NCBI GenBank assembly: GCA_037137455.1
Contig: JBAXKG010000003.1
Coordinates: 20,373-84,372 of the forward strand
Direction of reading: 5' to 3'
From: Bacteroidota bacterium
GTDB lineage: Bacteria > Bacteroidota > Bacteroidia > Bacteroidales > FEN-979
DNA length: 64,000 nt
Shown here: piece by piece, positions 26,011-44,168 of the stretch
Numbering within the stretch: position 1 is the first letter of the stretch
How the letters are laid out: each line of letters begins with the position of its first letter
Made by a program: the position numbers and the translations under genes
Notes under the pieces: generated by a model
Database searches by the model: none
Seen by the model: the letters and a program-made list of their open reading frames with translations, nothing else
What the model was told of the DNA's origin: nothing

Positions 26011-28380
26011 TTAAAACTTCCTGATTAGTTCAATGATCGACTTTCTGACTCCGATAAAAATTCCTGGAATAATGGATTTCCGCCCCAGTTCAGCGCTGAG
26101 ATCATTCCCGGCAATTTTAATCTTTTGTTTAAAATCTGTAAATACAATATGAATTCTCTTCATCTTATTTTCAATTGCCTCGGCAATTGATTTTGCAAAC
26201 ATTTTTTTATCAGAGTGATTATACCTCGTAACAAACAGGGTAACATCGGCAAAACGGTTGAGCAGAAAAGCATCTCCAACAATCCCGATAGGAGGAGTAT
26301 CCATGACGATAAAGTCGTATCTTTTGCGCAACTCGGCAAACAGGAGTCGGTTTTTTTCCGATTCAATTAACTCATCAGGGTTGGGAGGAACAGGTCCTGA
26401 AAGCAATATGTCAAGGTTTTTGGTATATGTTTTTTGTATGACCTGGTCAACGGGGATATCATTGATTAAAAAATTGGTTACTCCTTCATTTCCGGAAAGG
26501 TTGAACGATTCGGCAATTTTAGGTCGTTGCAGGTCGAAACCGAGTAGCAGTGTCCGTTTTCCAGCCAGGGCGTAAATAGAGGCCAGGTTTATAGCCAAAA
26601 ATGTCTTTCCATCTCCGTTAATTGATGAGGTTATCATGATTACCTGTTCTCCGCTCCTGGGATCCAGGTTGAGTTTTATCTTTATTATCCTTAATATCTC
26701 AGTGAAGAATGAATTGGCCTGGAGAAGGATTTTCCCTGTCCTCTTGTCGGTATTGCGGATGAGGGTTCCGATAATCGGAACATCGGTGATTGCCTCAATA
26801 TCATCTGTTGACATAATCCGGTTGTTGAAGAGAACGACAACAAACAGGAAAACAGCAGGTAGAAGCAATGCCCAGATAAAGGCGTTTATAAAAGCCGTTG
26901 TGGGACTGGCAGAAATAACCATGACGCCTGTATCGCCGGCATAATCAACAATTTCATGATCGGAACTGTTAGCAGCAAGTTGAATCTCAACCTCCGATTT
27001 CCGTTTTAATAAAAAGTCGTAGAGATTATTGAAAACATTGTATTTTCTCTCTATTTCAAGGTATTGCCTTTCAATACCGGGTAATGTTGCAAATTCGGCA
27101 TCCTTTTTCCCCAAACGCTCATCTGTATCTTTGATTTTGATTTTAGTGGTCTGAATTATACTCTGCATGTTTTCCAATAATGCAGTCTTCATGTTGACAA
27201 TCTGTTCTTCAAGTGTCTGAATATAAGGATTTTGTCGCGATGAATTTGCAACCAGATCCTCCTTCTCAAGCGATACAGTGGATAATTTTAAAACCAGGTC
27301 TGAAAACAGGGGCAGACTTAGTCCAACAGTTGAGGGCATCACGATATCACTATATGAGTTTCGTGTTTGCAGATAATCGAGCAAATATTCATAATACTTT
27401 AAATCGGCCATTAATCCGGCACGGCTTTTTGATTCATTGTTCATTTCACTCAGCAACATAGCGGCTTTGGCCGAAAGTTGCATGAATTTATTAACCTTTC
27501 TGAACTCTTCCAGTCGTTGTTCTGCCGAATCGAGATCTTTACCCATTTGGAGCAGCTGGCTGTTGATGAATTCAATTGTACTGATAAGGATTCTGTTCTT
27601 TTTTTCAAGGTTGGATGTCAGAAACATCCGGGTTAGTTCATTCAGGTAATCTTTCTCTTTTTCTTTGTTGGGGCCTGATGATGAAATGATAATGACAGAA
27701 GTTTGTTTCTCGGGTTCGATGACCGTTTTGTCGCGGTACTGGCCAGCCAGCTGATTGATGTCATTAATGATGAATCCATATACCTGCGAGGTGTAATCCT
27801 GCGCATTGATGCTGTCTTTGAGCGCAACTGAAAAAGAGTATTCGTTCGACTCAACAGTATCGCCAAACATAAAGGTTTTCGGTTCTTTAAAAGGAGGGTA
27901 ATCATCTGACCAGATCTGGAATTTGCCTGGCCCGGTTAATTTCAAGTTAAACATGATTGTTTTTGGCTGCTTATGCGATTTGTTAAAGGAGACCAGAAAA
28001 GGAGCTCTTTTATAAATCTCTTCCCAAACGTATTTACCCTTAGCAAAATAGGATACCTGAAAATTGAGATTTTCAAGAATATGCCTGATTTGTGAAAAGG
28101 ATTTTAAAATGGCGATCTGGTTGTCAATAAGTTTTGAATTCAGAAAAAGCGGATCAGCCGAAATGGAGCCGCGCTGGTCGAGTACCGATTTGTTGCTTTT
28201 ATCTTCAATCAGTACAGAAGTGGATTGTTTATAAACCGGGATTACATACCGGTTTTTATACATAGCAAAGAAATAGGCAATAATAAACGCAAATAAAAAC
28301 AGATACCAGTTGCCCAGATATTTATTCAATACCCTTTTGATATCGATTCCTCCGGTCAGGCCTGCACTGGCTTTACCCAC
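26011..28380 (-). CDS. wzc: Wzc-like polysaccharide co-polymerase / BY-kinase lacking the C-terminal Tyr cluster
   Basis: Two TM helices around a coiled periplasmic domain; Walker A GDGKT, A' FDLQRP and B MDTPP; GTG start. Confidence 0.9.
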
Positions 28381-28383
28381 GGT

Positions 28384-29193
28384 TTATAGTTTAGTTAACG
28401 TAAGAACCAAAACCGCGAAAGTTACAATCGTCGTCAATATCGATATAGAGAAAGTGGGAGTAATCCCAAACGCTTTGGCTTTCATGGGTTCGGCATATAT
28501 CAGATCGTTCGGGTATACATAAAACATGTTTTTCCCGATCAAATTACCACTCCTCAAATCAATTACATACATTTTCTTTTCACCATTTTCATTGCGCAGA
28601 ACTTTTATCTTGTTCCGCTTGGCATAGTCTGTCAATCCTCCTGCCAGTGAAACGGCTTCGAATATTGTAAGTTTATTTCGCATCATGTTATAGGTGCCTT
28701 GCTTTGTAAACTCACCAAGCATATAAATGGTGTTATTAATCAGTACTACCTCAATTCTGCAACGGCCAACAATTTTGGCTGCATGCACTTTCACGGTATC
28801 GCGAGCCTCTCTGATAGTCAAACCTCCGAGTCGAATGATGCCAATATAGGGGAAATAAATGGTGCCATCGTCATACACATGATATCCGACAAGCGCCTGA
28901 TTTTCGCTGTTAAGGTAGTTAATACCAGCAACAGGTTCCACAAACTGTGTTATAGGTTTTTCGACAGAAGTTATACTGATGTATAAGTAATCATTTGGCT
29001 GAATACGGTATATGGTATCTTCAAAATGTTTTCCCTCAAAGGTGTTGGCATAGGTGCTGTCGATCAGTTTGTCGTACTGCATTAAAAGCAGATTCTTTTG
29101 AGGGATGCATGAAGACAGAAAAACAAAGGCAATGAGAATACTGAAGATAAAAATCCGGTTGATGGATAAAGATCCTGATGAGGTTAAAATCAT
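28384..29193 (-). CDS. wza: Wza-like polysaccharide export lipoprotein
   Basis: Lipobox LSSC, YRIQPND, DGTIYFPYIG, SLBB motif LAGGLTDYA and C-terminal hydrophobic helix. Confidence 0.9.
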   Translation of the reverse strand: MILTSSGSLSINRIFIFSILIAFVFLSSCIPQKNLLLMQYDKLIDSTYANTFEGKHFEDTIYRIQPNDYLYISITSVEKPITQFVEPVAGINYLNSENQALVGYHVYDDGTIYFPYIGIIRLGGLTIREARDTVKVHAAKIVGRCRIEVVLINNTIYMLGEFTKQGTYNMMRNKLTIFEAVSLAGGLTDYAKRNKIKVLRNENGEKKMYVIDLRSGNLIGKNMFYVYPNDLIYAEPMKAKAFGITPTFSISILTTIVTFAVLVLTLTKL

Positions 29194-29218
29194 GACATTC
29201 TCTCCCTGTAAATCGAAA

Positions 29219-29226
29219 CAAATATA
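29219..29226 (-). promoter_or_regulatory. Internal -7 box (TATATTTG) upstream of wza
   Basis: Exact TAnnTTTG match in the 116-bp gap before wza. Confidence 0.5.
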
Positions 29227-29309
29227 ATAAAATAGATACGGAAAGGAAACAATAAAATTAATATAATGGGATTGAATCCGCTATAAGCTCTAAAATTTCA
29301 ATGCAATGG

Positions 29310-30881
29310 TTATTTTATTGTACGATACACAATACGAAGTAAATCGTTGCGATTGACAGGTTTCACCAGGTATCCATTGAAATTATTGTCTGTGATGCGG
29401 TCGATTAAGCTCTTTGCGGTAAAAGCAGTTTGAGCGATGAAAGGAATATTTTGATATTCGGGCCACCTTTTTTCCATTTCCGCCTTTAAGAGTATTCCGT
29501 CCCATGGTTTTGGCAATCCGATGTCCATAATCACAATATTAAAAATAATACCCTTGTTATAAAAACCCTCTGTAATATTCAATGCTTCATTGCCTGAAAA
29601 GGCTGTTGAAACAGCAGAAATATTCTCGAAGTACAAATTCAGAAGGGATGCACTGAATTTGTCGTCCTCAACAATTAAGATATTCAGAGCCCTTTCCCCT
29701 ATGTTTTGTTCTAATTGTGCCAGATCATCCAGGCTGTCGCTTCCAGGTGCAAGCGGAAGCGATACATGTGCTATTTCTGCCATCTGTTCGCCAGTTGAAA
29801 ATGTTATTTTTCCGTCAACCAGATTTAGTGTGTTTAACAGAGACTTAATTTCCGGACTTTGCGATAATACAGGATTGGTTATGTCGTAAAGGTTTTTGGC
29901 ATTCTCGCGTTTAATAAAATTGATAATTCCCTGGGGAATATCCTGGCCCAGATTGTCAATAACAATCACAGCTTTTTCATGGGACGGGTCAAATGCAACA
30001 TCAACAACGACATATTCATTCCTGGAATACTGAAGCGCTTTGGATAGTAGAAATTTAATAAGTTCCAGCAGAAGGAATTCATCAGTAAATACTATTATTT
30101 CATCCGACTGTCTGATTTGGATAGTCAGGTTGTTTTCTCGGGCAACAGGATCCAGCAATATCTGGGCCTTTTGAATGATGGAGGCAATAAGGCAAGGGGC
30201 CCGGTTTACTTCGTAAGAATCAGTTTCTCCGATACTTAACTTATTCAGGAGTGTTTTCAACTGATTGCCGCTCTTCATAATGTATTCAACCTGGCCAAGC
30301 AATTTTTTATCCTTTGAAACAATCGGCTCTTTAAAAAGGAGAGAGCTAAAGCCCAACATATTGTTCAGTAAGTTCCTGACCCGGTGCTCAAAATCAATAT
30401 TCCAACGACCCTGAATCTCGATGGTATTTTCTGATTGCGACAATGTAAGTAACTCATTCCGGGGCTGATCTGCAGTCTGCCTTGCGGTATCTGCAATCTC
30501 ATTTTCCTCAACAACAACACAGGTCCCAAGAAATTTTTGTCCTTCAATTTCCTTAAAATCAATTAAAATTGGAATAAGATATCTCCGTGCATCAATAATG
30601 AAAATTCGGGAAGTAAATTCTGAAAATTGCTTTGCCTCAAAAGAATTTTCATGACCTTTTAAAGTCACAAACAGATCTCTTACATGATATTCTTTGATCT
30701 CTTCTTCAGTATAACCGGTCAATAATTGTGCTTTCTTGTTAAGGATAAGCAAGTCTCCCTCAATATCGGCAAGGAATGTAGCTTCTCTTTTGTTTTCAAT
30801 AAGGGTTTTATAATAATCTTTGTTCGCGAGAGATTTTTTATCGCGTGTCTCTTTATTTCCGAATACTGAACGAATTGCCAT
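29310..30881 (-). CDS. PAS + degenerate HisKA/HATPase + receiver protein (pseudo-histidine kinase)
   Basis: PAS-like LNKKAQLLTGYTEEEI; H-box EHRVRNLLNNMLG; N and G boxes degenerate; intact receiver (IVEDD, IMDIGLP, QTA, LVKP). Confidence 0.8.
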   Translation of the reverse strand: MAIRSVFGNKETRDKKSLANKDYYKTLIENKREATFLADIEGDLLILNKKAQLLTGYTEEEIKEYHVRDLFVTLKGHENSFEAKQFSEFTSRIFIIDARRYLIPILIDFKEIEGQKFLGTCVVVEENEIADTARQTADQPRNELLTLSQSENTIEIQGRWNIDFEHRVRNLLNNMLGFSSLLFKEPIVSKDKKLLGQVEYIMKSGNQLKTLLNKLSIGETDSYEVNRAPCLIASIIQKAQILLDPVARENNLTIQIRQSDEIIVFTDEFLLLELIKFLLSKALQYSRNEYVVVDVAFDPSHEKAVIVIDNLGQDIPQGIINFIKRENAKNLYDITNPVLSQSPEIKSLLNTLNLVDGKITFSTGEQMAEIAHVSLPLAPGSDSLDDLAQLEQNIGERALNILIVEDDKFSASLLNLYFENISAVSTAFSGNEALNITEGFYNKGIIFNIVIMDIGLPKPWDGILLKAEMEKRWPEYQNIPFIAQTAFTAKSLIDRITDNNFNGYLVKPVNRNDLLRIVYRTIK

Positions 30882-30935
30882 GAGTAAAGAGTTATCCTTT
30901 TACGGCTTCCGGGATATAATAGTTTGAAAGTTTCC

Positions 30936-31445
30936 TTATGAAGAAATCAATAACAAAATAATTGCAGCCATGGCTACAATCAAGGCAATTATGAGAAAAC
31001 GTTTTCTGTATTTTTTTATTTTCATGGTATTTATTGCCATCTCCTCACGTAATTTGACGGAATCGAGGATTTGCTTCAAAGTTTTTTCCAGATTAGGAAC
31101 AAGGTCATCGTCTTTGACTATAAAATCGACCGCGCCTTGTTTAAGCAAGGAGGTGGCTTCTCCAATGTCGGAATTGGATGTGAGCATCACTACCGGAAGA
31201 TTCTTGGTTATACGTCGGATAAATCGCAGAATTTTTTCACCGTTCATTGCAAAACCAAGAGGACTTTCAATAAAATAGTCGAGTAGAATAATATCGGGAT
31301 CATATTCCCATGACGAGATCATTTGTTCACCCGATCGGAAAGAATGAACGATGAAACCCTGATTTCGGAGAGAAACTGAAAGGGTTTCGGCAAACATTTC
31401 ATTATCTTCTACGAGGAAGATAGTAGCGCTATTATTTTTTTCCAT
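30936..31445 (-). CDS. Receiver-domain protein with C-terminal transmembrane anchor
   Basis: FLVEDN, ILLDY, MLTS, DFIVK; ends KKYRKRFLIIALIVAMAAIILLLISS. ATG at 31445 preferred over TTG at 31457. Confidence 0.88.
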   Translation of the reverse strand: MEKNNSATIFLVEDNEMFAETLSVSLRNQGFIVHSFRSGEQMISSWEYDPDIILLDYFIESPLGFAMNGEKILRFIRRITKNLPVVMLTSNSDIGEATSLLKQGAVDFIVKDDDLVPNLEKTLKQILDSVKLREEMAINTMKIKKYRKRFLIIALIVAMAAIILLLISS

Positions 31446-32616
31446 CTTTTTCTTCAATATTATCTAACAACAGCCGGTTATCAACCTGCATTCTGAGCGC
31501 TTTGTTTTTAAGCCTGCGACCCTTGAACCATTCTTTTATCAGCTTGTAAAGGGTCAAAAACTCTGAAAAAAGAATGACTTCAAGAAACAACAATGAAACC
31601 ACCAGTGCAAAGTGTTGTGAACGCAATAAAAACCCAGTTGTAATAATAACAATGTTCGCTGTATAGAGGATTTTTGCTGACCTTGGGTGGTTTAACCCGG
31701 TTTGCATGAGCAAATGATGGATATGGGTTTTATCGGGGCTGAAGGGTGATTTTTTATTAATTACCCTGCCGGTAAAAACCCGTAGGGTATCATAAACCGG
31801 GAGAAGGAAAATGCTAAAAACTATGATAGCCGCTTCGGTGTAATTAAAATAAGATGACTGTCCGCGGCTGAAGACCATCGTGACAATTCCTGCTGCTGAT
31901 AAAAGATAACCAAGGATCATGGAACCGGTATCACCCATAAATATCCTGGCAGGATGCCAGTTGTATTTCAGGAATGCCAGCAAAGCTCCGCCAGTTGAAG
32001 CAGTAATAAAGGCGACTCCCAATTCACCGGAAAGATAAAATATGATAAAAAAACCTGTCAAATCTATCAGAGCTAATCCTCCCGCCAGTCCATCAATACC
32101 ATCAATCAGGTTAAATGCATTGATAACACCGGCCACGATAAATACCGTAATAATATACTGGATTACAATGGGTAATTGGTTGATTCCGAAAATTCCGAAC
32201 ATGTTATCAATCAAAAGACCCGCGTGCGCCAGGAATAGAGCAGCAATCACCTGTCCAAGGAACTTTACTTTGGGTGGCAATTCGCGCAGATCATCGACAA
32301 TGCCAATAATCATGAGGATTAACAGTCCGGTTAACAAGTGAAGCAGGAAGTTGTTGTTTGTATAAAGAAACCACAAAGGGAAAGTTGATAATGTACCTGC
32401 AACAATTCCAAGTCCTCCCAACCGGCTTATCGGCACCTTATGCACTTTTCGTTCATTGGGTTTATCTACCAGGTTGTAGTGAATAGATAATTTGATGATT
32501 AAAGGAATCAGAACCAGGCAAATAATAAAGCTTCCTGCAAATGCAGCGAATAAAAAAAATATTTCATTTTCTCCGGCTGCCTGTTCGATTTTTTGCAATG
32601 AATCAGTCATGATCAT
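31432..32616 (-). CDS. WecA/TagO-like undecaprenyl-phosphate HexNAc-1-phosphate transferase (MraY family)
   Basis: DKPNERKVH, GIVDDL, NAFNLIDGIDGLA, FMGDTGS and PDKTHIHH. Confidence 0.93.
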   Translation of the reverse strand: MIMTDSLQKIEQAAGENEIFFLFAAFAGSFIICLVLIPLIIKLSIHYNLVDKPNERKVHKVPISRLGGLGIVAGTLSTFPLWFLYTNNNFLLHLLTGLLILMIIGIVDDLRELPPKVKFLGQVIAALFLAHAGLLIDNMFGIFGINQLPIVIQYIITVFIVAGVINAFNLIDGIDGLAGGLALIDLTGFFIIFYLSGELGVAFITASTGGALLAFLKYNWHPARIFMGDTGSMILGYLLSAAGIVTMVFSRGQSSYFNYTEAAIIVFSIFLLPVYDTLRVFTGRVINKKSPFSPDKTHIHHLLMQTGLNHPRSAKILYTANIVIITTGFLLRSQHFALVVSLLFLEVILFSEFLTLYKLIKEWFKGRRLKNKALRMQVDNRLLLDNIEEKDGKK

Positions 32617-32634
32617 AAACCAAATTTATAAGGT

Positions 32635-33402
32635 TTATATTTGGCGATTTACCCATTCAGGTGGCATGAATTGTTTGAATTTTGATGCATTTTTATTAAA
32701 AAGCGCGGTGAAGGATATTAATCCATTGATATGCATGGCCCTAACATCTTCAAGGCTTTTTCTGATAACATTTTTGATACTTTTATTACTTTCCCCTCCG
32801 AGACGCATTCGGATAAGGACCAAAGGTATATAAAAAGTGCTAACCCTGAAGCGGACCAGGAAACGGAGTATCGATTCATAATCGGCCGCTATTCTGAAAG
32901 TTGTGTTGAACCCGCCATATTTAATATAAACTTCACGTTTTACATAAAATGTAGGATGTGGAGGCATCCAGCCGGTAAGGGCACGCGCACGGGAAAACTT
33001 ACGGGAACGCCAGAAACGAACAATTTTATCTGTGTCCTGCTGATCGACATATACTAAATCACCATAAACAGAATCAACTTTGAATTTGATAAAGGCTTCA
33101 GCAATCATTTTTATTGTTTCAGTTGAAGCAAAGATATCATCGGAATGTAAAAAGCCGACAACATCGCCTGTGGCAAGCCCGATCCCTTTATTTAATGCAT
33201 CATAAAGCCCATTATCCTTTTCCGAAACAAAAGTCGCAACCCGATCTCCATATGATTGGATGATTTCACAAGTGCTGTCTTTTGATTTCCCATCCACAAT
33301 TATGTACTCAATATCTTTGTAGGACTGGCTCAAAACCGATTCGATCGTATCGCGCAGTGTTTTTTCACTATTATAGGTGATGGTAATGATCGATATTTTC
33401 AT
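32635..33402 (-). CDS. GT2 glycosyltransferase (WcaE-like), paralog of 10035-10799
   Basis: SIITITYNS, GLYDALNKG, LHSDD, PPHPTFY and MRLGGESN. Confidence 0.92.
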   Translation of the reverse strand: MKISIITITYNSEKTLRDTIESVLSQSYKDIEYIIVDGKSKDSTCEIIQSYGDRVATFVSEKDNGLYDALNKGIGLATGDVVGFLHSDDIFASTETIKMIAEAFIKFKVDSVYGDLVYVDQQDTDKIVRFWRSRKFSRARALTGWMPPHPTFYVKREVYIKYGGFNTTFRIAADYESILRFLVRFRVSTFYIPLVLIRMRLGGESNKSIKNVIRKSLEDVRAMHINGLISFTALFNKNASKFKQFMPPEWVNRQI

Positions 33403-33462
33403 GATACTGTAGGCATTGGATCTATGTTTGCAAGTTAGCAGAAAACCCTGATTAAAAATAAT

Positions 33463-34014
33463 TTATGCAACAATTACCCGCTCCTTAATCTTAACTGCCG
33501 GATTTCCCTGATAAATACTGTAAGGATCAAGATCACGGGTAGCGACCGAATTAACGGCAAGAACCGAGTGGGATTTACATTTTATTCCGGGACAAACTAT
33601 GCTGAATGCGCCGATCCATACTCCATCTTCCAGTGTAATTTCCCCGGTTATAAGGTCAAAGGTGCTTTTTTTAAAATTGTGATTTCCACATAATAACATG
33701 GCGCCTTGAGAAATACAACAGTTGCTGCCAATAACCACATTATCGAGATTATCTATCCATGAATTTTCGCCGATCCAGGTGTTATCGCCAACAATTAAAC
33801 GCCATGGATACTTGATATTGACACAGGGCTTGATATTGACTCCCTTCCCGACTTTTGCCCCGAAGGCCTTGAGCAATGCACATTTCATTGTGCTGGACGG
33901 AATCATTCCCGATTTAAAAAAAAGCACATTCACATAATACCAGCACAATCGCTTCAGTGCGTTGGCCCCGGGCTTGTATTGACTGTTATCATATCGGGAA
34001 ATTTCTGTGATCAT
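33463..34014 (-). CDS. wcaF: WcaF-like polysaccharide acetyltransferase
   Basis: FGAKVGKGVNIKP-x-VNIKYPWRL, WIDNL, SQGAMLLCGNH and GNPA. Confidence 0.9.
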   Translation of the reverse strand: MITEISRYDNSQYKPGANALKRLCWYYVNVLFFKSGMIPSSTMKCALLKAFGAKVGKGVNIKPCVNIKYPWRLIVGDNTWIGENSWIDNLDNVVIGSNCCISQGAMLLCGNHNFKKSTFDLITGEITLEDGVWIGAFSIVCPGIKCKSHSVLAVNSVATRDLDPYSIYQGNPAVKIKERVIVA

Positions 34015-34016
34015 GA

Positions 34017-35156
34017 TTATAAATTGAAAAGATTAATGTTTTCTGCAAGCATTTCAGGATTTGCAATATATGATTTGGCATATGCGAATGCATTATCGGA
34101 ATAGGTGGCAAATGCATTTTGGTCAAGAGCGGCAAAAAAATCAATCGCTTCTTTAAACCGGCCAGGGTTTTCAAGGGGAATATCCATTCCTATCCCCGAC
34201 TTCTCGAGATCCCTCCATGGTGTACGGTCGCTGATTATTACCGGGCACCCGGCCATGAAGCTTTCTAAAATCGTATGTCCGAAGTTTTCACCGGTTGTAG
34301 GTAAAAGCATCACATCAAATCCCTGCAGTTCTTCAAGGATTTTTTCACTCGGAATGCTTCCGCGATAAGTAACGGTTACGTTCGCCGGCATAGCGCCGAT
34401 AATCTCTTTACATTCATTCCAGTAAGCCTCATCATATACCGGCCCGATAATATCATACCGGATTTCGTAGTTTCTGCACTGGTTCAGAATTTCAAGTGCA
34501 TACAACTGGTTCTTTTCAGGCGAGATACGAGCCACGGTTACCATGGTTAATTTGCCTGCGGTTTTCTGCTTGCGAATAGGAGGTCGTGAGACTTTTCTCG
34601 GCAATTCCCGGGCTTCAGCGATTTTGATATTTTCACCAATATGTGCCCTGATATCGGAAGTTTCGTGGGCTATAACAGAATGAAACACCGTTCCATGATA
34701 AAACCTGATCATTTTCATCAGGGTAAGGAAACTTTTTTTTCTGAATGATTTCACTCCAAGCGCCCCCTGTCCGAGAACCCCATGCGAAGCAATGATAATA
34801 CTTTTATGCCGATCTATTTTGGCTAATAACAGGGGTAAAAAAGAAAACCAAAAACCGAAAAGGAGGTGAATATAAACCACATCATATTTCCTTTCATTCA
34901 ATAACCGATTGAACAGTCCAATCTTGTGGTTAGCCGCAGAGACATAAAAGACATTTACATTCGGGGAAATCACATTCCACCGATCAGGAATTATTTCCGG
35001 GTAAGGGATAGATTCAGTGTAATCGGTATCGCTGGTTACAATATAGAATTCAAAATTATCCTTCAAATAGTCAACCTGGTTCATAAAAGCCCGAATGGTG
35101 CCACCTGCCTTGTATCCCGGCCAATAATAATCGGTAAACGAAAGGATCTTCTTCAT
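34017..35156 (-). CDS. GT4 glycosyltransferase
   Basis: PGYKAGG, RISPEKN and ENFGHTILESFMAGCPVIISD. Confidence 0.92.
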   Translation of the reverse strand: MKKILSFTDYYWPGYKAGGTIRAFMNQVDYLKDNFEFYIVTSDTDYTESIPYPEIIPDRWNVISPNVNVFYVSAANHKIGLFNRLLNERKYDVVYIHLLFGFWFSFLPLLLAKIDRHKSIIIASHGVLGQGALGVKSFRKKSFLTLMKMIRFYHGTVFHSVIAHETSDIRAHIGENIKIAEARELPRKVSRPPIRKQKTAGKLTMVTVARISPEKNQLYALEILNQCRNYEIRYDIIGPVYDEAYWNECKEIIGAMPANVTVTYRGSIPSEKILEELQGFDVMLLPTTGENFGHTILESFMAGCPVIISDRTPWRDLEKSGIGMDIPLENPGRFKEAIDFFAALDQNAFATYSDNAFAYAKSYIANPEMLAENINLFNL

Positions 35157-35157
35157 G

Positions 35158-36200: not shown

Positions 36201-36641
36201 TTAATCGTTGTCCATTAAAAATTTTTTTATCTTGGAAAAAGCTTTTTTTACCGGAGTGTTGTCAGACTTATTCTTCATCTCAGACTCTATTTCCTTTAAA
36301 ACAGGCAGAAGATTTTCAAAAGCCTTTTCATCTTTTTTAATATACTCACGGGCTCCTTGCTTAATTGATTGCACAGCCAGTTTAACATTTTTTTGCCCCG
36401 ACATGAAGATGACCCGGAGGTCGGGTTTATATGCCCTGATTTTTTGTAAAACCTCCACTCCGTTTACCATCCCAAGTTGCTGATCCATAATAATTACATC
36501 CGGAACTCTTTCTTCGTATACCTGAAGAAGGCATTCCAGTCCGTTATCCACATGTTTTATTTCATCATATCCCTCATTTTTCAATAATTCAATGAGCATT
36601 GTTGCATAAAAGGGATCATCCTCAACCAGGAGTATAAACAT
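36201..36641 (-). CDS. Stand-alone receiver-domain protein (first gene of the polysaccharide locus)
   Basis: LLVEDD, IIMDQ, FMSG, EYIKK; no output domain; short basic amphipathic C-terminus. Confidence 0.9.
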   Translation of the reverse strand: MFILLVEDDPFYATMLIELLKNEGYDEIKHVDNGLECLLQVYEERVPDVIIMDQQLGMVNGVEVLQKIRAYKPDLRVIFMSGQKNVKLAVQSIKQGAREYIKKDEKAFENLLPVLKEIESEMKNKSDNTPVKKAFSKIKKFLMDND

Positions 36642-36705: not shown

Positions 36706-36713
36706 CAAAGTTA
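36706..36713 (-). promoter_or_regulatory. -7 box (TAACTTTG), candidate promoter of the polysaccharide locus
   Basis: Exact TAnnTTTG match on the minus strand in the divergent spacer. Confidence 0.45.
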
Positions 36714-36787
36714 ATACTTTTTGATACGGATAATGAACCCCTTGCAATATAACCATCCAAAGAAATATTAATCTTTCAAAAATTATT

Positions 36788-39700
36788 ATGGAAAAGGACA
36801 TACAAAAGACTTTACTTGAATTGTCTTTTTCAATAGGAAGCAACGCCGAAAGTTCCAAATTTGACCTGGCCAAATACCTTCAAAACACACTTCCGGTATT
36901 TCTTGAAAAACTTGATCTAAGCGGAGCCTGTGTATTGCAACTTGCTGATCATGGGTTTCAGGTTATATACGAACGAAGCCATGTTGAAAATCCGTGTTTC
37001 CCCATATCAGAAATTACAGAGAGACAATTCGTGAGATCTTCAGAATCCTCACATACTCAATCATATCAAATAATTAAGGAAATATTATTTCATCATATTT
37101 TTAATCTTGACAATTTTGGAGTTCTGATTCTTTCGGGCGAAAAGAAATTAACTTCTGACCTGCTTTTACAGTTACACCCGGTAATTTCCATGCTTGCCCA
37201 TGCATGTAATTTTTACTCCGGGATCAGTAAGCTAATGAAATCGGAAGAAAAGTTGAAGCAGGAACGTAATCTTTTTCACACCATTATTGATAACATACCT
37301 GATCCCATTTATGTAAAGGACCTCGATGGGCGAAAAATCCTCCTCAATAAAGCAGAGGCTGATCTGCTTGGAGTAGCTTCAATTGATGCGGCAATTGGCA
37401 AAACCGATGAAGATTTTTATCCCGTGGAGATAGCTGAAAAAACCAGGTTGGAAGACAAACGGATCCTTGACCTTAAAACGCCAATGATTCATGAAGAGGG
37501 CAGGCTTATTACCCGGACTGGGGAAGAGCTGTGGTTTGAAGGAAATAAAATTCCATTTTTTGACGAAAATGGTGAGGTTTTGGGAATTGTGGGGATAAGC
37601 CATAACATTACAAACCGTAAGAAAGCAGAAAAAGAAATCCAGGAGAGTGAAGAAAAACTGGGTAAACTTCTTCACCTGCAAAACCTGTTAACACAATTGG
37701 CAACAGAATTTATTAATATTCCCGTTGAAAACAGTGATGAAGCAGTAAACAGGCTGCTTACGATTATTGGTGAGCAAAACCAGATAGACCGGGTTTATAT
37801 TTTCAGCTACGATTTCGAGTCCAAAACCATGTCGAACACACATGAATGGTGTGCCGAAGGGGTTAGTCCTGAGATTGACAATCTTCAAATAATACCTCAC
37901 TCTTTACTGCCTTCCTGGGTTGAAACACATTTAAAAGGAGAGATTCTGACAGTTCCTGATGTTAGCGAATTGCCCGTGGATGGCGTTTTACGTCAGATAC
38001 TTGAACCACAAGGCATCAAGACGCTAATCACGGTTCCAATGATTTTAAATGGCGAGTGCCTTGGATTTGTCGGATTTGATTCAGTAAGAATAGTAAAACA
38101 ATGGAGTGGGGAAGAAATTACTTTTCTCCGTTTGTTAGCCGATTTGCTTTGCAATGTCGTTGACCGGAAACGAACCGAAAAGACGCTTGTTACGCGTGAG
38201 GCATATCTAAAGTCGATATTTGACAATGTTCCTTACCTGATGTGGCTGAAAGACACAGAAGGCCGGTATTTGATTGTTAACCAGCCATTTCTTGATTATT
38301 TTAGTTTTACGATTCATGATTATCCGATTGGTAAAACGGCCCATGACCTATGGTTGTCAAATATTTCACAAAATTTTGTCGATCAGGACAATGAAGTATT
38401 AAAAACACGAAAATTAAAGGTTGTTGAGGAACAGGTTGACTTTCATGGAAAAATGGTCTGGTTCGAAATTTTCAGGGCGCCAATAATAGATCCTAATGGC
38501 AAGCTTCTTGGAACAACTGGCATTGCGCGTGATATCACCAGCAGGATCATGGCTGACCATGAATTAAAAAAAGCCACAGAGGCTGCTGAATCTTCAAATA
38601 TTGCTAAAACCCGTTTCCTTGCAAATATGAGTCACGAAATACGTACTCCCCTCAATGCAATTACCGGCATGATCAGGCTGTTTCGTGAAACCTCTCTCGA
38701 TCCGTCACAATTGAAATTGCTTGGCAATATGAATACGGCATCGGAAAACCTGTTGACTGTTATTAATGATATCCTGGATTTCTCAAAAATTGAATCAGGA
38801 CAGATTACTCTTGATAGAACAGACTTTAATATTAATGAGTTATGTCGCAGGGTATATGATGCCAATGAATACCGGGCAGAGGGAAAAAACATTAAACTGC
38901 AATATTCAGTTGACCCTGCCATTCCTGAGTTTTTAAAAGGAGATCCGGTTCGTCTTCATCAGGTTCTAAATAACCTTGTTAGTAATGCAATTAAATTTAC
39001 CAATGAAGGCGGGGTTGAAATGCATTTTAAACTTATTGGAGAGGACAAAAATATCAGTACAATTCTTTTCGTGGTAGAGGATACAGGAATCGGCATAAGT
39101 CCGGAAAACCAAAAGAGAATATTTAACAGTTTCCAGCAGGAGGATGAAAGCATCACACGTACTTACGGGGGAACCGGTCTGGGTTTGCCCATCAGCAAGC
39201 AATTGGTGGAGCTCATGGGAGGCGAACTTAGCCTTGAGAGTACCAAGCACAAAGGCAGCAGCTTTTTCTTTACACTTAACATCCCAAATGGATCGGCCGT
39301 CGGATGTGAAATTGAAAAACCTGCAGTTGAACCCGGATCAGCGAATTTAACCGGATATAGGATTTTGTTGGTTGAAGATAATAAATTCAACCAGTTTATT
39401 GCTCAGTCTATTCTTGAAAAGTGGGGTGGGGCGGTGATGATCGCCGAAGATGGCCAACAGGCTGTAGATAATCTTTCTTCCGGCAAATTTGACTTGATAT
39501 TGATGGATATTCAGATGCCGGTAATGGATGGTTTAACTGCGGCTAAAATTATCAGGAACAAACTCAATTTGCAAACTCCTATACTTGCGCTTACGGCCAA
39601 CGTAGTGAAAGGGATTGTAGAAAGATGTGAAGAGGCCGGCATGCAGGGTTATATTTCAAAGCCATTTGATGAAAATGAACTTTACACGAAAATCATGGCG

Positions 39701-40099
39701 GTAATTGGTAAAAATCAGGGATATGATGAATCAGCCCCTCTGATTTCGCCTGAAGTTATAGTTGCCGACACATCCAGGTTATCAAAAATGGTTGGTAATG
39801 ATAAGTCGATGCTGAATAGAATGATTCTCAAGTTTCTTGAGGTTACTCCTGCATATATGAACGAATTATCTGATGCAGCTGTGAACAATGATCCTGATGC
39901 TATAAGCCGGATGTCGCATAAAATAAAATCGAGCGTTGACCTTGTTTCAACTGACAAAGTTCGCGACCTTATTAAACAGATCAATGAAAAAAGTAAATCG
40001 CCCGGGGAGATCGAAAATCTTCGTGAAATGATTAAAGAATTTTCCATGCAATTTGAATTATTGGTCAGGCAGCTGAATGATGTTGTCAACATGAGTTAA
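36788..40099 (+). CDS. Cytoplasmic hybrid histidine kinase (PAS-GAF-PAS-HisKA-HATPase-REC-Hpt)
   Basis: PAS IDNIPDPIYVKD, GAF SNTHEWC, SHEIRTPLN, NLVSNAIKFT, GGTGLGL, LMDIQMP and Hpt SHKIKSS; no TM segment seen. Confidence 0.94.
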   Translation: MEKDIQKTLLELSFSIGSNAESSKFDLAKYLQNTLPVFLEKLDLSGACVLQLADHGFQVIYERSHVENPCFPISEITERQFVRSSESSHTQSYQIIKEILFHHIFNLDNFGVLILSGEKKLTSDLLLQLHPVISMLAHACNFYSGISKLMKSEEKLKQERNLFHTIIDNIPDPIYVKDLDGRKILLNKAEADLLGVASIDAAIGKTDEDFYPVEIAEKTRLEDKRILDLKTPMIHEEGRLITRTGEELWFEGNKIPFFDENGEVLGIVGISHNITNRKKAEKEIQESEEKLGKLLHLQNLLTQLATEFINIPVENSDEAVNRLLTIIGEQNQIDRVYIFSYDFESKTMSNTHEWCAEGVSPEIDNLQIIPHSLLPSWVETHLKGEILTVPDVSELPVDGVLRQILEPQGIKTLITVPMILNGECLGFVGFDSVRIVKQWSGEEITFLRLLADLLCNVVDRKRTEKTLVTREAYLKSIFDNVPYLMWLKDTEGRYLIVNQPFLDYFSFTIHDYPIGKTAHDLWLSNISQNFVDQDNEVLKTRKLKVVEEQVDFHGKMVWFEIFRAPIIDPNGKLLGTTGIARDITSRIMADHELKKATEAAESSNIAKTRFLANMSHEIRTPLNAITGMIRLFRETSLDPSQLKLLGNMNTASENLLTVINDILDFSKIESGQITLDRTDFNINELCRRVYDANEYRAEGKNIKLQYSVDPAIPEFLKGDPVRLHQVLNNLVSNAIKFTNEGGVEMHFKLIGEDKNISTILFVVEDTGIGISPENQKRIFNSFQQEDESITRTYGGTGLGLPISKQLVELMGGELSLESTKHKGSSFFFTLNIPNGSAVGCEIEKPAVEPGSANLTGYRILLVEDNKFNQFIAQSILEKWGGAVMIAEDGQQAVDNLSSGKFDLILMDIQMPVMDGLTAAKIIRNKLNLQTPILALTANVVKGIVERCEEAGMQGYISKPFDENELYTKIMAVIGKNQGYDESAPLISPEVIVADTSRLSKMVGNDKSMLNRMILKFLEVTPAYMNELSDAAVNNDPDAISRMSHKIKSSVDLVSTDKVRDLIKQINEKSKSPGEIENLREMIKEFSMQFELLVRQLNDVVNMS

Positions 40100-40121
40100 T
40101 TTACAGAAGGGTCTTGAAATC

Positions 40122-40904
40122 ATGTATGGCTTAGATTTTATATTTTACAAGACATTCCTGCAATTCGTGATGCCACTGGGAGTGGCATTTATAGGATTTC
40201 TGACAGCTTTGATTTTCTTTTTTAAATGTAAAAGCAAAAGAACGGGTTTTATTTTGTTTATGAGTTCAATTGCATGGCTATGGCTCTGGAGTATGCCTTT
40301 GTGGAGTGATTTCATACGAAACAGATTAGAGTCGCAATTTAAATACCGGCCCGTTTCAACGTATCCTGAGGCAGATGCAATTGTCGTATTGGGAGGCGGA
40401 ATAAGGGGATATGCAGGATCAGCAATGCCGTCACTTGACCTGAACGGGGCTGCAGACCGGGAATTGTTTGCAGCGCAGCTTTTTCATGCGGGCAAATCAC
40501 ATGTGGTTATTTTAAGCGGCGGAGCAGATCCGATAATCAGAACTGGTATTTCGGCCCTTGCCATGAAGGAATTTCTTTTAATTCTTGGAGTTCCGGGCGC
40601 ATCAATACGGATTGGTTCCGGTAGCAGGAACACCGTTGAAAATATGCAGGAGGTCGGGAAAATGATGAAAGAAATGAAAGGAGACTCAATCTTACTTGTA
40701 ACATCGGCCCTGCATATGCCACGCGCTGTTTGGCTTTTTGCCCGCAGCGGACTTCATGTGATACCGGCCCCTGCCGATTTTGAATCTATTCCTGTTCCAT
40801 TTCGATTAATCAGGTTACTGCCTGATGCTGAAGCATTGGGAAACAGCTCGCGTGCAGCAAAGGAGCTGATAGGATTATGGTCCTATAAACTTATCGGGTA
40901 TTAA
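40122..40904 (+). CDS. YdcF/ElyC/SanA (DUF218) family envelope protein
   Basis: Two N-terminal TM helices; AIVVLGGG, ILSGG, SRNTVEN, LVTSALHMPRA and KELIG. Confidence 0.92.
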   Translation: MYGLDFIFYKTFLQFVMPLGVAFIGFLTALIFFFKCKSKRTGFILFMSSIAWLWLWSMPLWSDFIRNRLESQFKYRPVSTYPEADAIVVLGGGIRGYAGSAMPSLDLNGAADRELFAAQLFHAGKSHVVILSGGADPIIRTGISALAMKEFLLILGVPGASIRIGSGSRNTVENMQEVGKMMKEMKGDSILLVTSALHMPRAVWLFARSGLHVIPAPADFESIPVPFRLIRLLPDAEALGNSSRAAKELIGLWSYKLIGY

Positions 40905-43741
40905 GCTTCTTGTGGGTTATCCTCGATCCATTTTTCAAGCTGAGCGATCATCAAAGGGAATTTTATTTTTATTAGCTCAAACAAATTTGGAAGCTTGTCA
41001 AGGTTCTGCTTTTCATTAGCATAAAGATATATGAGATTTATTGTGTCACGTATTGATTGGGTGGCGATGAGGTCCAAACTTGATTTAATTTTATGGGATG
41101 TTTGCAGGATATTCTCAAAATCATCGGCCTCATATGCATCTATCAACGCCTTATAATATTCCGGGATATACTGCAGAAACTTTACTATCATAGCATGGCT
41201 CTGTTTCTTATTATTACCTAAGAACCGGAATAGCTTTGATAGGTCATAGTGAATCTCATCCTGCTGCATATCGCTGCCATATATTTCAGGTGGATTGGTT
41301 CCATCTAAATAAAACTCAGGTTCGATACCAACAGCCTTCAATAGTTTTATATACAAATCTTCTTCGTCAAATGGTTTGGTGATATATTCGTTCATCCCGG
41401 CATCATAAGCCCGTTGAATTGCCTCTTTTGTAACATTTGCCGTCAGTGCGAAAATAGGAATATTCTTATTTATTTCGCTCCGGATAATCCTTGTGGCTGT
41501 CACTCCATCCATTTCCGGCATTTGCATATCCATAAGTACAATATCGTAATAAGTTTGTTTGAGATTCTTAACGGCAATGGTGCCATTTTCAGCAATTTCG
41601 GTTGATGCCCCCCACTTTTCAATGAGTGATTTGACAATGAACTGATTGAATTCGTTATCCTCAACAATCAGGATTTTCTTGTTCTTCAAGGCTGCGGGGT
41701 CAAATTTTACTTTCTGATCTTCCTTCTGGAGCGCCTTTTCATCGGTCGTTATAAATTCCAGAGTAAAAAAGAACCGGCTGCCCTTTCCTTTTTCGCTTTC
41801 AACCTGCAGTTCCCCATCCATCAGGTTCACCAGTTGCTTGCTAATGGCAAGGCCAAGGCCGGTTCCTCCATAAATTCTTGTAACGCTGTCATCTTCCTGC
41901 CTGAACCGTTCAAATATGTAGTTCAGGTTTTCTTTGCTGATCCCGATTCCTGAATCAGTAACCGAAAAAAGCAATCTTGTTTTTGTTTCAGTTTCATCAA
42001 TCAGTTTGCAGGAAACTTCCACACCTCCGGTTTGCGTAAATTTAATAGCATTACTTACAAGATTTGTGAGCACTTGCTGCAGCCGGACAGGATCGCCGAT
42101 CAAAGCCCTGCCAATCCGCTGATCGACACTGGTTGTAAGGGTAATCATTTTTTCTTCAGCCGTATGTTCAAGGGAACTGTAAACCCGCCTGATCATTTTT
42201 TGCAGGCTGAAGGGTATGGCTTCCATTTCAATCTTGCCTGCTTCAATTTTCGAAAAATCGAGAATTTCATTAATAATACCTAATAAATTTTCGCCGGAGA
42301 TAAGTAATTTGTCGTTAAGTTTTTTCTGTTCTGAAGTCAGAGAAGTGTCGTACAGGAGTTTTGACAAACCAATAACCGCATTTAGAGGAGTACGGATTTC
42401 ATGACTCATTTTGGCAAGAAAAAGACTCTTGGAAGAATTGGCTGATTCAGCCTCTGTAGTCGCTTTTCGTAAATCATTCTCAATTTTTTTCCTGGAAGAA
42501 ATATCGCTGTATTGCCATAGATTCCCAAGAAATTTCTGATCAAGAAAGATCGGAATATAATCCCGTTCGAAAATCCTGTTATCGGCCAATTCAATTTCCT
42601 CGCCAATCACTGGTTTTTTTTCTCTGAGAATTATATCAATCCGATTTACAAAATAGTCAGGATCAAGGAATAGTTGTTTGGATTGATTAGCAGAATCGGA
42701 ACAATCTGATCCCAGCAATGCTTCCGGTTCAACCGGAATGCTGAACATGTTACAAAAAGTTTTATTGATCAGGGCAATATTTCGGTATTGGTCTTCCACA
42801 AGAATTCCAGAATTCATATTGGTTATAAGGGTCGCTAACCGCATGGTGATTGATTCCATTTCATTTTGCGCTTTTTTTTGATCAGTGATATCGCGCTGGA
42901 TGGAAATAAAATTGGTAAGTTCTCCCTGTGCATTAAACACTGGCTGAATCTGGAGTCGCACCCAATACGGGCGCCCATTCTTATGATAGTTAACCAGGTC
43001 GGCTTCGATAGGAATCATCATGTTAACAGCTTCCGCAATTTTATTCACGATTTGCTGGTCTGTATCATCACCCTGAAGGATTTCTCCGGGCTTGATCCCT
43101 TTCACCTCTTCAAATTTATAGCCGGTGATGCGTTCAAAACTTCGGTTAACCCATTCTGTAAGGCCGTCTTTGCCTGTAATGATAACAGCATTGTCAGTTT
43201 CCTGTGCAATCAAAGATGCCAGCCGTAATTCAACCTGCATCATAATATTGCCATATATTCCTCCGGCGATATTGCAGATAAAGGACAGGATGGCAACAGT
43301 TTCATCATTAAAGTGGTTTTTTTCAGAACTGACAATACCGAATGCACCAACAGCCTGATCTCCGTTCATAACCGGCACGTAAAGCCTGGAACGTACAATA
43401 AAACTTCTTTCAGATGAAATAGACCGGTGCTCCGGATCATTCTCAGTATCCGGAATATTTAAAATCTCCCTGGTGCGGAAAACATATCCGGGATGTCGTT
43501 CCATTCCTGTACGTTCTGCTTCCCTCAGTTCCTCATCATTAAATCCTTTGGCAACAAGTAATTTTAACTTGTTTTCATGGAAATCGTAAAGGTAAAGACC
43601 CGAAAACTCAATGTCCATAAGATCATCAAGCACAGCTTCAACCTCAATTGCCAGATCATTTAAATTATGGATTGTTGTATATCCGGAGGCAAAACGTTTC
43701 AACCGGTTTAACAATTGCAGATTATCGATAATTTTCATCAT
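40901..43741 (-). CDS. Cytoplasmic hybrid histidine kinase (GAF-PAS-PAS-HisKA-HATPase-REC-Hpt)
   Basis: N-terminal GAF, two PAS domains, SHEIRTPLN, NLVSNAIKFT, GGTGLGL, LMDMQMP and Hpt SHKIKSS. Confidence 0.94.
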   Translation of the reverse strand: MMKIIDNLQLLNRLKRFASGYTTIHNLNDLAIEVEAVLDDLMDIEFSGLYLYDFHENKLKLLVAKGFNDEELREAERTGMERHPGYVFRTREILNIPDTENDPEHRSISSERSFIVRSRLYVPVMNGDQAVGAFGIVSSEKNHFNDETVAILSFICNIAGGIYGNIMMQVELRLASLIAQETDNAVIITGKDGLTEWVNRSFERITGYKFEEVKGIKPGEILQGDDTDQQIVNKIAEAVNMMIPIEADLVNYHKNGRPYWVRLQIQPVFNAQGELTNFISIQRDITDQKKAQNEMESITMRLATLITNMNSGILVEDQYRNIALINKTFCNMFSIPVEPEALLGSDCSDSANQSKQLFLDPDYFVNRIDIILREKKPVIGEEIELADNRIFERDYIPIFLDQKFLGNLWQYSDISSRKKIENDLRKATTEAESANSSKSLFLAKMSHEIRTPLNAVIGLSKLLYDTSLTSEQKKLNDKLLISGENLLGIINEILDFSKIEAGKIEMEAIPFSLQKMIRRVYSSLEHTAEEKMITLTTSVDQRIGRALIGDPVRLQQVLTNLVSNAIKFTQTGGVEVSCKLIDETETKTRLLFSVTDSGIGISKENLNYIFERFRQEDDSVTRIYGGTGLGLAISKQLVNLMDGELQVESEKGKGSRFFFTLEFITTDEKALQKEDQKVKFDPAALKNKKILIVEDNEFNQFIVKSLIEKWGASTEIAENGTIAVKNLKQTYYDIVLMDMQMPEMDGVTATRIIRSEINKNIPIFALTANVTKEAIQRAYDAGMNEYITKPFDEEDLYIKLLKAVGIEPEFYLDGTNPPEIYGSDMQQDEIHYDLSKLFRFLGNNKKQSHAMIVKFLQYIPEYYKALIDAYEADDFENILQTSHKIKSSLDLIATQSIRDTINLIYLYANEKQNLDKLPNLFELIKIKFPLMIAQLEKWIEDNPQEA

Positions 43742-43751
43742 GGAATAAACA

Positions 43752-44168
43752 TTAAATGCAATTCACTGCAGCCTGTGCACAAATCTGATCCTGTTCATAG
43801 TGGCCCCCGCTGATTCCAATAGCTCCAATTATCTGGTTTTCAAATATTATTGGAATTCCGCCTCCCATAAGCATAAAGTCGGTAAAATCATGTACGCCTT
43901 CCCTGAGAATTGGGTCATCCTTGATGAAATCAAACCATGATTTACCTGTCGGGAGTCCGAATCCAACTGCAGTGATTGCTTTTTTTCTGGAAGCATCCAC
44001 TGCAATTAACGGCGCATTATCCATACGGGCAAAAAATTTAATTACTCCGCTTTCATCAACGATAGTGACAGCTATTGCAAGCCCTGACTCCACCGCTTTT
44101 TCAATGGCTGCCTTTGCCATTTTTTCTGCGTCTGTGAGTCCGACCGAATTTTTGGTAAAGTTTTTCAT
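43752..44168 (-). CDS. GlcG/HbpS-family (putative haem-binding) protein
   Basis: IVDESG, RMDNA, KKAITA, GGGIPI and IGAIGISGG-x-x-EQD; no signal peptide. Confidence 0.9.
   Translation of the reverse strand: MKNFTKNSVGLTDAEKMAKAAIEKAVESGLAIAVTIVDESGVIKFFARMDNAPLIAVDASRKKAITAVGFGLPTGKSWFDFIKDDPILREGVHDFTDFMLMGGGIPIIFENQIIGAIGISGGHYEQDQICAQAAVNCI

Follow-up and report, generated by a model that had tools for sequence, protein, structure and literature searches.

Gene content of the locus

We analysed a 64,000-nt stretch of contig JBAXKG010000003.1 (the window, to whose positions all coordinates refer) from a Bacteroidota bacterium, an uncultured freshwater member of the Bacteroidales with a genome of 3.37 Mb. 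The window contains a surface-polysaccharide operon with signalling genes inside and beside it. Positions 26011–44168 were first described in an earlier note, which proposed that a phosphorelay with no DNA-binding output is built into the locus. Every gene and domain listed there was recovered by Pfam and by checking the open reading frames (ORFs), but the locus does not end at 26011 as the note had it. A Pfam scan of the window's ORFs follows the operon on the minus strand from 36641 down to uppS at 7503, and this extension includes a Wzm/Wzt ABC transporter (table 1).

The operon also holds gmd/fcl and about 12 glycosyltransferases in addition to uppS. From REC1, the first gene of the operon, which is divergent from the hybrid kinase gene HyHK1, through to wzt, neighbouring genes lie no more than 116 nt apart; minus-strand genes then run on to uppS. 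The transporter pair was confirmed by Pfam matches to ABC2_membrane (Wzm) and to ABC_tran and Wzt_C (Wzt), and the Wza-type protein has hydrophobic segments at both its N-terminal and its C-terminal end. A promoter and terminator scan of 25500–44500 returned 51 promoter-like sites against 53.6 in shuffled sequence, using a sigma-70 consensus that is ill-suited to Bacteroidota; on the minus strand of this interval it found no convincing intergenic terminator.

Table 1. Genes of the polysaccharide operon and the adjoining signalling genes (window positions).
Feature	Position	Strand	Evidence
HyHK1: cytoplasmic hybrid kinase, PAS-GAF-PAS-HisKA-HATPase_c-REC-Hpt	36788..40099	+	Pfam, motifs
DUF218 (Upr-like) membrane protein, 22 nt 3' of HyHK1	40122..40904	+	Pfam DUF218 E 2.5e-27
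HyHK2: cytoplasmic hybrid kinase, GAF-PAS-HisKA-HATPase_c-REC-Hpt	40901..43741	-	Pfam, motifs
HbpS-like (haem-degrading/GlcG-type) protein	43752..44168	-	Pfam PF03928 E 2.3e-33
REC1: stand-alone receiver with Lys-rich 40-residue tail	36201..36641	-	Pfam REC E 6e-24
Two GT1 glycosyltransferases, hexapeptide acyltransferase, GT2; gaps 1-60 nt	32635..36150	-	Pfam
WecA-like polytopic phosphoglycosyl transferase (PF00953)	31432..32616	-	Pfam E 3.6e-40, multiple transmembrane segments
RECtm: receiver with C-terminal transmembrane anchor (tail-anchored receiver)	30936..31445	-	Pfam REC E 3e-17
Pseudokinase-REC: PAS, DHp, degenerate ATPase-like domain, REC	29310..30881	-	Pfam, AlphaFold2, Foldseek
Short Wza-type outer-membrane export protein	28384..29193	-	Pfam Poly_export and SLBB
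Wzc-like PCP-2a with P-loop domain, no Tyr cluster	26011..28380	-	Pfam, phmmer against E. coli Wzc
gmd, fcl, wzm (ABC-2 permease), wzt (ABC ATPase and Wzt_C glycan-binding domain)	21700..25973	-	Pfam
About ten glycosyltransferases, second hexapeptide transferase, 477-aa polytopic membrane protein, acyltransferase-3, uppS	7503..21690	-	Pfam

Hybrid kinases with Hpt domains beside the operon

Two cytoplasmic hybrid kinases ending in Hpt domains had been reported beside the locus, and the Pfam domains and motifs of HyHK1 and HyHK2 bear this out. Both have the H-box His, the G1 and G2 boxes, a receiver Asp (DxxMPxMDG) and the Hpt His motif. In HyHK1 these read HEIRTP at 616, DTGIG, GTGLG, DIQMPVMDG at 907 and HKIKS at 1044, and in HyHK2 HEIRTP at 447, DSGIG, GTGLG, DMQMPEMDG at 738 and HKIKS at 883. 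HyHK1 has no transmembrane segment, and neither kinase has a clear hydrophobic stretch. The Hpt domain of each kinase scored 21.8 bits in hmmscan, below the Pfam cut-off of 24.6; a six-frame search of the genome gave 26.6 and 26.7 bits for the same domains, above that cut-off, and those of orthologous kinases reach up to 25.2 and 29.4 bits. The six-frame search of the whole 3.37-Mb genome returned only three Hpt matches, two of which adjoin the polysaccharide operon. None of the five signalling proteins (the two kinases and three receivers in the operon) matches an HTH, AraC, GGDEF or EAL domain in Pfam at E ≤ 0.01, again as first described.

The two kinase genes have neighbours of their own. 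The DUF218 protein has an N-terminal transmembrane segment (residues 11–38), and its gene shares 4 nt with the end of HyHK2. The available part of a recent preprint describes the DUF218 family as Upr-like release factors for undecaprenyl-diphosphate (Und-PP)-linked polysaccharides (10.64898/2026.10.14.759067), and by family membership this protein is probably a release or recycling enzyme of the polysaccharide pathway. Because this co-oriented gene lies only 22 nt away, the HyHK1 transcription unit can be tied to that pathway. Directly upstream of HyHK2, on the same strand, is an HbpS-like gene, and the same pairing is found in related locus L021 at 72% identity. HbpS acts with SenS–SenR in Streptomyces; the HbpS-like protein may be an accessory sensor of HyHK2.

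Receivers without output domains and the WecA-like transferase

The three receivers that had been placed inside the operon, REC1, the tail-anchored receiver and the pseudokinase-REC, each match Pfam REC and carry no output domain. The phospho-acceptor Asp is kept in all of them: D453 in the pseudokinase-REC (18 sequences), D56 in the tail-anchored receiver (26 sequences) and, read from the sequence itself, D52 in REC1.

In the 26-sequence alignment of the tail-anchored receiver, D14, D56, K111 and Y146 are invariant and position 89 is Thr or Ser. Y146 sits just ahead of the anchor, a C-terminal hydrophobic helix of 20 residues, and a hydrophobic C-terminal stretch is kept in 24/24 orthologues. 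The start codon (ATG) of the receiver gene overlaps the stop codon of the WecA-like gene by 14 nt. The same overlap occurs in seven loci of the genus in which the ORF start is at ATG, while in three distant loci the two genes are separated by 5–28 nt. The cytoplasmic tail of the WecA-like protein carries a conserved motif, [DE]NR[LF]L, in which N380 and R381 are invariant. As the genome has three PF00953 genes, of which this is one, we regard the transferase as an extra, dedicated enzyme.

Tethered to the membrane and lacking an output domain, such a receiver has no access to DNA by the usual route. Its conserved anchor, and its place beside the WecA-like gene, kept after rearrangement of the locus, fit an action at the membrane. 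That the tail-anchored receiver regulates the WecA-like transferase directly is a tentative proposal, to which we give a little less than an even chance. Complex prediction for the two proteins, supplied as alignments, gave scores of 0.28 and 0.26 against a mark of 0.32, and no reading was drawn from it. Among longer relatives of the tail-anchored receiver there was no fusion to a WecA-like protein, all seven matches being hybrid kinases, a null result of little weight.

A pseudokinase-REC protein encoded upstream of wza

The pseudokinase-REC protein has 523 residues, and its gene ends 116 nt upstream of wza. Pfam finds PAS, a weak HisKA and REC in it, with no HATPase_c match, and none is recorded in its homologues down to about 29% identity; HATPase_c is recorded only in more distant relatives, which are true kinases. 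The AlphaFold2 model (mean pLDDT 79.8) resolves a PAS domain (21–123), a DHp domain of two helices (162–216), an alpha/beta CA-like domain (227–377) and a receiver (400–522). The best Foldseek matches of the model are histidine kinases, including ShkA, RetS and NifL. Across an alignment of 18 sequences, Lys or Arg stands in place of the Mg-binding Asn of the N-box, DN[IL]GxD in place of a regular G1 box, and a G2 box is missing; the window protein also lacks an H-box consensus. Its receiver, by comparison, is intact, with D453, T485 and K507 invariant in the same 18 sequences.

A 474-aa DHp–CA–REC paralogue without PAS, 29% identical to the pseudokinase-REC (G000:C7:32670-33806), was also found in many genomes of the genus, including those that have no such locus. 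Because related proteins carry HATPase_c, this paralogue is probably a true kinase.

A Wzc-like protein without the tyrosine cluster

The Wzc-like protein is homologous to E. coli Wzc over its periplasmic and P-loop parts (phmmer, E 3e-35), with transmembrane segments at 21–40 and 493–524. The lack of a Tyr cluster, already remarked on in the first description, is complete: there is no Tyr in the last 60 residues. The cluster is missing from 33/33 orthologues as well, which have at most two Tyr in their last 25 residues; going by these alignments, a Tyr-less tail is a family trait of these Wzc proteins. In its place the orthologues end in a conserved basic helix, RRxIIDLLRK[FI]. Walker A (GK[TS]) is kept in 30/33 and Walker B ([DE]T) in 33/33, and Walker A' reads GFD, not DxD, its first Asp being Gly in 30/33.

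The locus had also been said to encode neither a Wzb phosphatase nor an UpxY antiterminator, and among ORFs of at least 130 aa between 7503 and 44168 we found no LMWPc, PHP or NusG-like match. A second Wzc, or a Wzb linked to the locus, was considered and rejected: the genome has no other Wzc, and its two LMWPc genes both lie on other contigs.

Conservation of the locus within the genus

We sampled 36 other genomes of the genus, checked three more (39 in all), and added one genome from each of 24 other families of the order. Orthologues of the pseudokinase-REC over its full length (52–77% identity) were present in 10/36 of the sampled genus genomes, or 11/39 with the three additions, and in none of the 24 genomes from other families. 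In all ten genus loci examined, wza and wzc follow the pseudokinase-REC gene. The WecA-like and tail-anchored receiver genes precede it in nine, and the contig of the tenth ends before this point. REC1 and its four enzyme genes were found in 7/10; of the other three loci, one carries different genes at this place and two are cut off by the end of the contig.

All seven loci with REC1 have a divergent HyHK1 orthologue, although the shared part is only the HATPase–REC–Hpt core: PAS/GAF sensors were found in 2/7, a HisKA match in 5/7 and an Hpt match at E ≤ 0.001 in 6/7. The DUF218 gene lies next to the HyHK1 orthologue in 6/7. Searching with the HyHK1 core, the 11 best full-length matches (54–77% identity, E ≤ 2.9e-157) came from exactly the 11 genomes that bear the locus; eight of them share a contig with the pseudokinase-REC, and three do not. 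The weaker matches comprised orthologues of HyHK2, a widespread paralogue some 835 residues long, and partial alignments (in G026 and G007, 51–53% over 384 residues).

Two of the HyHK1 orthologues are short, at 590 aa (L013:11965-13737) and 623 aa (L016:15128-16999). The HyHK2 orthologue is long in those genomes, with 1330 aa in L013 and an open frame of 1338 aa in G023, the genome of L016, and there one hybrid kinase may be standing in for the other. In L014 (6145-9363), and also in L015, L016 and L017, two genes are inserted between the tail-anchored receiver and the pseudokinase-REC, one for a 680-aa DUF4114/DUF4842 protein and one for a Branch-family (core-2/I) glycosyltransferase.

Conservation of the locus beyond the genus

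A scan of species representatives, overlapping the genus set, yielded 36 loci with a full-length relative of the pseudokinase-REC at 29–77% identity, all of them in uncultured Bacteroidales-type genomes. In 35 of these loci there is a pseudokinase-REC ORF, and Wza comes directly after it in 34/35; the contig of the thirty-fifth ends 481 bases on, with a partial match. A full Wzc is next in 32/35, the remaining three contigs ending earlier. Wzm/Wzt follow in most related loci, and gmd, fcl, wzm and wzt are kept downstream of wzc in most. Where at least 4.9 kb of upstream DNA was available, the WecA-like gene and the tail-anchored receiver were both present in 24/27 loci.

These loci show three gene arrangements: a co-linear one, at times with two inserted genes, for a DUF4842/DUF4114 protein and a Branch-family transferase; a divergent one (L040–L058), in which the WecA-like and receiver genes lie on one strand and GT1 and the pseudokinase-REC on the other; and that of L057. 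The WecA-like/tail-anchored receiver pair occurs in both the co-linear and the divergent arrangement, even though the divergent receivers are only 32–38% identical. In L053 (1613-6616), the immediate neighbours of the tail-anchored receiver are a REC–histidine kinase, a PAS–GAF hybrid kinase and a sensor protein with a FIST domain.

The earlier note had suggested looking for co-occurrence of the tail-anchored receiver, the pseudokinase-REC, the Hpt hybrids and the Tyr-less Wzc across Bacteroidota. The first, the second in its place by Wza, and the last were conserved as counted above (24/27, 34/35 and 33/33), whereas the kinases were not a constant part: a full hybrid kinase ORF lies in the 10-kb upstream flank of 12/27 loci, two more are cut by the limit of the flank, and this flank holds none in the other 13/27.

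A proposed relay and its alternatives

Our preferred reading has two parts, held jointly at a probability of about one half: that the locus is an accessory one for a surface polysaccharide initiated by the WecA-like enzyme and exported by the ABC transporter together with Wza and Wzc, and that a dedicated multi-step phosphorelay encoded with it ends on proteins and not on DNA. That the signalling genes serve this polysaccharide is very probable, because they stay linked to the locus when the genes are rearranged, the HyHK1 core is inherited together with it, and of the three Hpt domains in the genome two lie here; the claim that they belong to the locus was thus sound. We take the receivers to act on proteins because the anchor of one is conserved, because that receiver is tightly coupled to the WecA-like gene, and because the pseudokinase-REC keeps a fixed place before wza–wzc. 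The flow of phosphate, the partners and the post-translational action are inferred from sequence.

According to this proposal, HyHK1 and HyHK2 would autophosphorylate, HyHK2 perhaps working with the HbpS-like protein, and in each kinase phosphate would pass to its own receiver and then to its own Hpt domain. The Hpt domains would in turn charge the three output-less receivers. In the inner membrane, the tail-anchored receiver would set the rate of the first committed step beside the WecA-like transferase, a role analogous to that of EpsW~P on EpsZ in Myxococcus. The polymer is probably handed on to the short Wza and the Wzc-like co-polymerase. Here the pseudokinase-REC, predicted to be unable to bind ATP, may act on the Wza/Wzc export machine or relay phosphate at it, its partner Wzc having a P-loop domain that appears to have lost the tyrosine switch. 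REC1 could form another branch or serve as a sink for phosphate. Taken singly, an action of the pseudokinase-REC on Wzc is doubtful. Improbable in our estimate is the fullest version of the idea, a wholly post-translational, two-point His–Asp switch for a capsule. In this version the tail-anchored receiver would gate the polytopic WecA-type transferase, and the pseudokinase-REC, once phosphorylated, would bind Wzc at its Tyr-less P-loop domain and drive the cycle of its assembly, so that in this lineage aspartyl phosphorylation would replace the tyrosine phosphorylation of the Wzc/Wzb pair.

Several observations weigh against a dedicated relay that ends on proteins. The genomes compared are kin, so that the counts overstate the independent support. 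The pair of WecA-like and tail-anchored receiver genes is missing in L044, L056 and L057 (3/27), and the hybrid kinases are not constant: besides the 13 flanks without one, the HyHK2 orthologue adjoins the locus in only 4/7 genus loci, and two of the seven HyHK1 orthologues (L013 and L016) have no HisKA match and align only past the H-box. At the position of the DHp His, the aligned pseudokinase-REC sequences vary: 14/18 have His, 2/18 have Asn, and in 2/18 the residue is absent. In L057 (3035-8711), an NtrC-type receiver and sigma-54 AAA+ regulator lies directly upstream of a 1206-aa hybrid kinase–Hpt; an anchor-less receiver, GT1 and the pseudokinase-REC follow, and there is no WecA-like gene within 10 kb. 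This locus is the most distant of the set, at 29% identity.

Because L057 has an NtrC-type regulator beside its hybrid kinase, a transcriptional output is possible, with the Hpt domains ending on a distant DNA-binding regulator and the embedded receivers acting as phosphate sinks or modulators. Output-less receivers are well known to serve as sinks, some loci lack a hybrid kinase nearby, and an OmpR-type pair lies at 2977–4958 in the same window. We nevertheless judge transcriptional control unlikely: the window has no DNA-binding regulator in or adjoining the operon and none is conserved across the genus loci, while a sink would need neither a conserved membrane anchor and a place beside the transferase (24/27 loci) nor a fixed place before wza (34/35 loci). 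A different objection concerns the pseudokinase-REC alone. Its histidine-kinase-like fold (AlphaFold2, Foldseek), ATP-dead CA-like domain, intact receiver and usual DHp His would also suit a histidine phosphotransferase joined to a receiver, which would shuttle phosphate through that His and leave Wzc untouched, its place before wza reflecting co-expression. ChpT and Spo0B share this build of DHp and dead CA. Against such a carrier, the His is replaced by Asn or missing in 4/18 sequences while the rest of the protein is conserved, and the hybrids bring Hpt domains of their own, making an extra His carrier unnecessary; we consider it a rather remote prospect.

A further alternative, that the signalling genes adjoin the polysaccharide operon without being related to it, has in its favour that the window is rich in kinases, among them a classic histidine kinase at 3690–4958 and a Reg_prop/Y_Y_Y kinase at 45755–49042. 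It is scarcely credible, given that the linkage persists through three arrangements and down to 29% identity, that presence or absence of the HyHK1 core matches the locus exactly in the genus, that the genome has only one Hpt domain elsewhere, and that the WecA-like and tail-anchored receiver genes overlap. On these grounds of linkage, co-inheritance, Hpt count and the 14-nt overlap, chance adjacency was rejected.

Other features of the window

The Reg_prop/Y_Y_Y sensor kinase (minus strand) ends at its HATPase domain, without REC and AraC parts, and is not conserved beside the locus in relatives. Bacteroides hybrid two-component systems usually carry both parts. Within the operon, the 477-residue polytopic membrane protein (10818–12251, minus strand) has no Pfam match. 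Its nearest Atlas clusters are unnamed Bacteroidota proteins. In one cluster, at rank 11, 13% of the members are assigned to the Wzy polymerase family, which we treat as a lead only; a Wzy-like or ligase-like step would be unusual in an ABC-transporter locus. A release factor 2-like ORF (59175–60065, minus strand) has a TTG start and matches the PCRF profile only from position 72; its N-terminal part may lie in another frame, and a programmed frameshift is known for prfB. DNA nearly identical to 28300–36700 is present in lake-water and freshwater metagenome runs of other studies, with word shares of 0.80, 0.60 and 0.54 in runs of one study (P2) and 0.46 in another (P3); no RNA run was among those listed for this interval.

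Significance and comparison with known systems

Little is understood of the way in which cells hold back polysaccharide pathways competing for undecaprenyl phosphate. The first receiver acting directly on an initiating transferase was reported in 2025, for monotopic enzymes in myxobacteria. The present locus suggests that the same logic arose with the WecA/MraY superfamily, in Bacteroidota and in an ABC-transporter pathway. With two kinases, three receivers, one transferase and one Wzc, its parts list is compact and could be reconstructed in E. coli, and the locus provides two marker sequence families, the tail-anchored receivers and the PAS–pseudokinase–REC proteins tied to wza–wzc.

To call this an undescribed system, as was done at first, is too strong, as both a receiver that activates an initiating transferase (PMC12802240) and Tyr-less bacterial tyrosine (BY) pseudokinases (PMC12004946) were published in 2025. 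The comparisons that follow draw on the accessible parts of the papers cited. The nearest known system is the Myxococcus EPS pathway, in which the single-domain receiver EpsW, phosphorylated in the chain DifE to EpsW~P to EpsZ, stimulates the monotopic transferase EpsZ post-translationally. Its authors expect control of this type to be widespread and point to receiver fusions already reported for small monotopic transferases (PMC12802240). In both cases an output-less receiver is encoded with a polysaccharide locus, though its action on the transferase is only proposed here, and the Myxococcus pathway likewise has a Tyr-less BY pseudokinase. EpsZ, however, is a large monotopic enzyme, of the class that lacks the dimerising beta-hairpin, whereas the transferase here is polytopic and belongs to the WecA/MraY family (PF00953), outside the monotopic class. 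EpsW is soluble, in contrast to a tail-anchored receiver whose gene overlaps that of the transferase; the Myxococcus input is a CheA-like kinase in place of Hpt-bearing hybrid kinases; and the EPS pathway is Wzx/Wzy-dependent, unlike the Wzm/Wzt route here.

The Tyr-less Wzc has its own parallels in EcpK of the Myxococcus EPS pathway and HfsB of Caulobacter, BY pseudokinases that act by binding. As described in the accessible text, the pairs EcpK/EpsV and HfsB/HfsA make up a PCP-2 subfamily independent of phosphorylation, with a BY-kinase-like P-loop domain and no Tyr tail, and EcpK has a positively charged C-terminal helix (PMC12004946), recalling the conserved basic helix found here. Our protein differs in that the P-loop domain is fused to the co-polymerase part, as in Wzc, and that Walker A and B are kept, so that ATP binding may persist. 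The setting differs too, with an ABC transporter and with a pseudo-histidine-kinase–REC gene always placed before wza–wzc.

For the pseudokinase-REC, RetS and NifL offer a likeness in fold, each having a DHp and CA-like structure that is no longer an autokinase and acts by binding or phosphotransfer. It is set apart from these two, and from ChpT and Spo0B, by the order PAS–DHp–dead CA–REC, by its invariable linkage to wza–wzc and by the lack of a significant sequence relationship beyond fold.

In the Rcs phosphorelay the hybrid kinase RcsC and the Hpt protein RcsD control the colanic acid capsule; the relay ends on the DNA-binding RcsB, and its genes lie outside the capsule operon. Control of a capsule by a hybrid kinase with an Hpt step is thus shared, whereas the present locus has no RcsB-like protein, and the Pfam scan of the window found no HTH-bearing receiver, the RcsB type of end point, within the operon or next to it. 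In Bacteroides, capsule loci with UpxY/UpxZ likewise begin with a regulator gene. Here too a surface-polysaccharide operon opens with a regulator, but this is the receiver REC1, and there is no NusG-like antiterminator. Finally, the HmrABCX system of Caulobacter, with a hybrid kinase and putative His phosphotransferases, regulates a polysaccharide adhesin while transcription of its known regulator is unchanged. In the accessible part of that paper it is proposed to act through c-di-GMP (DgcB) and lies outside the biosynthesis operon (PMC11481889), whereas the receiver genes here are embedded.

A literature search that covered few subscription journals and no supplements found no paper tying a receiver to a WecA-type transferase and none on such a relay in Bacteroidota capsule loci. 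Within the same scope it found no tail-anchored receiver, the one text match concerning BcsB as a tail-anchored protein, and none of the five differences listed below was found in print. Set against the known systems, the locus differs in five respects: the superfamily of the transferase, the anchor of its receiver, the input from Hpt-bearing hybrid kinases, the ABC-transporter route, and a family of pseudo-histidine-kinase–REC proteins tied to wza–wzc.

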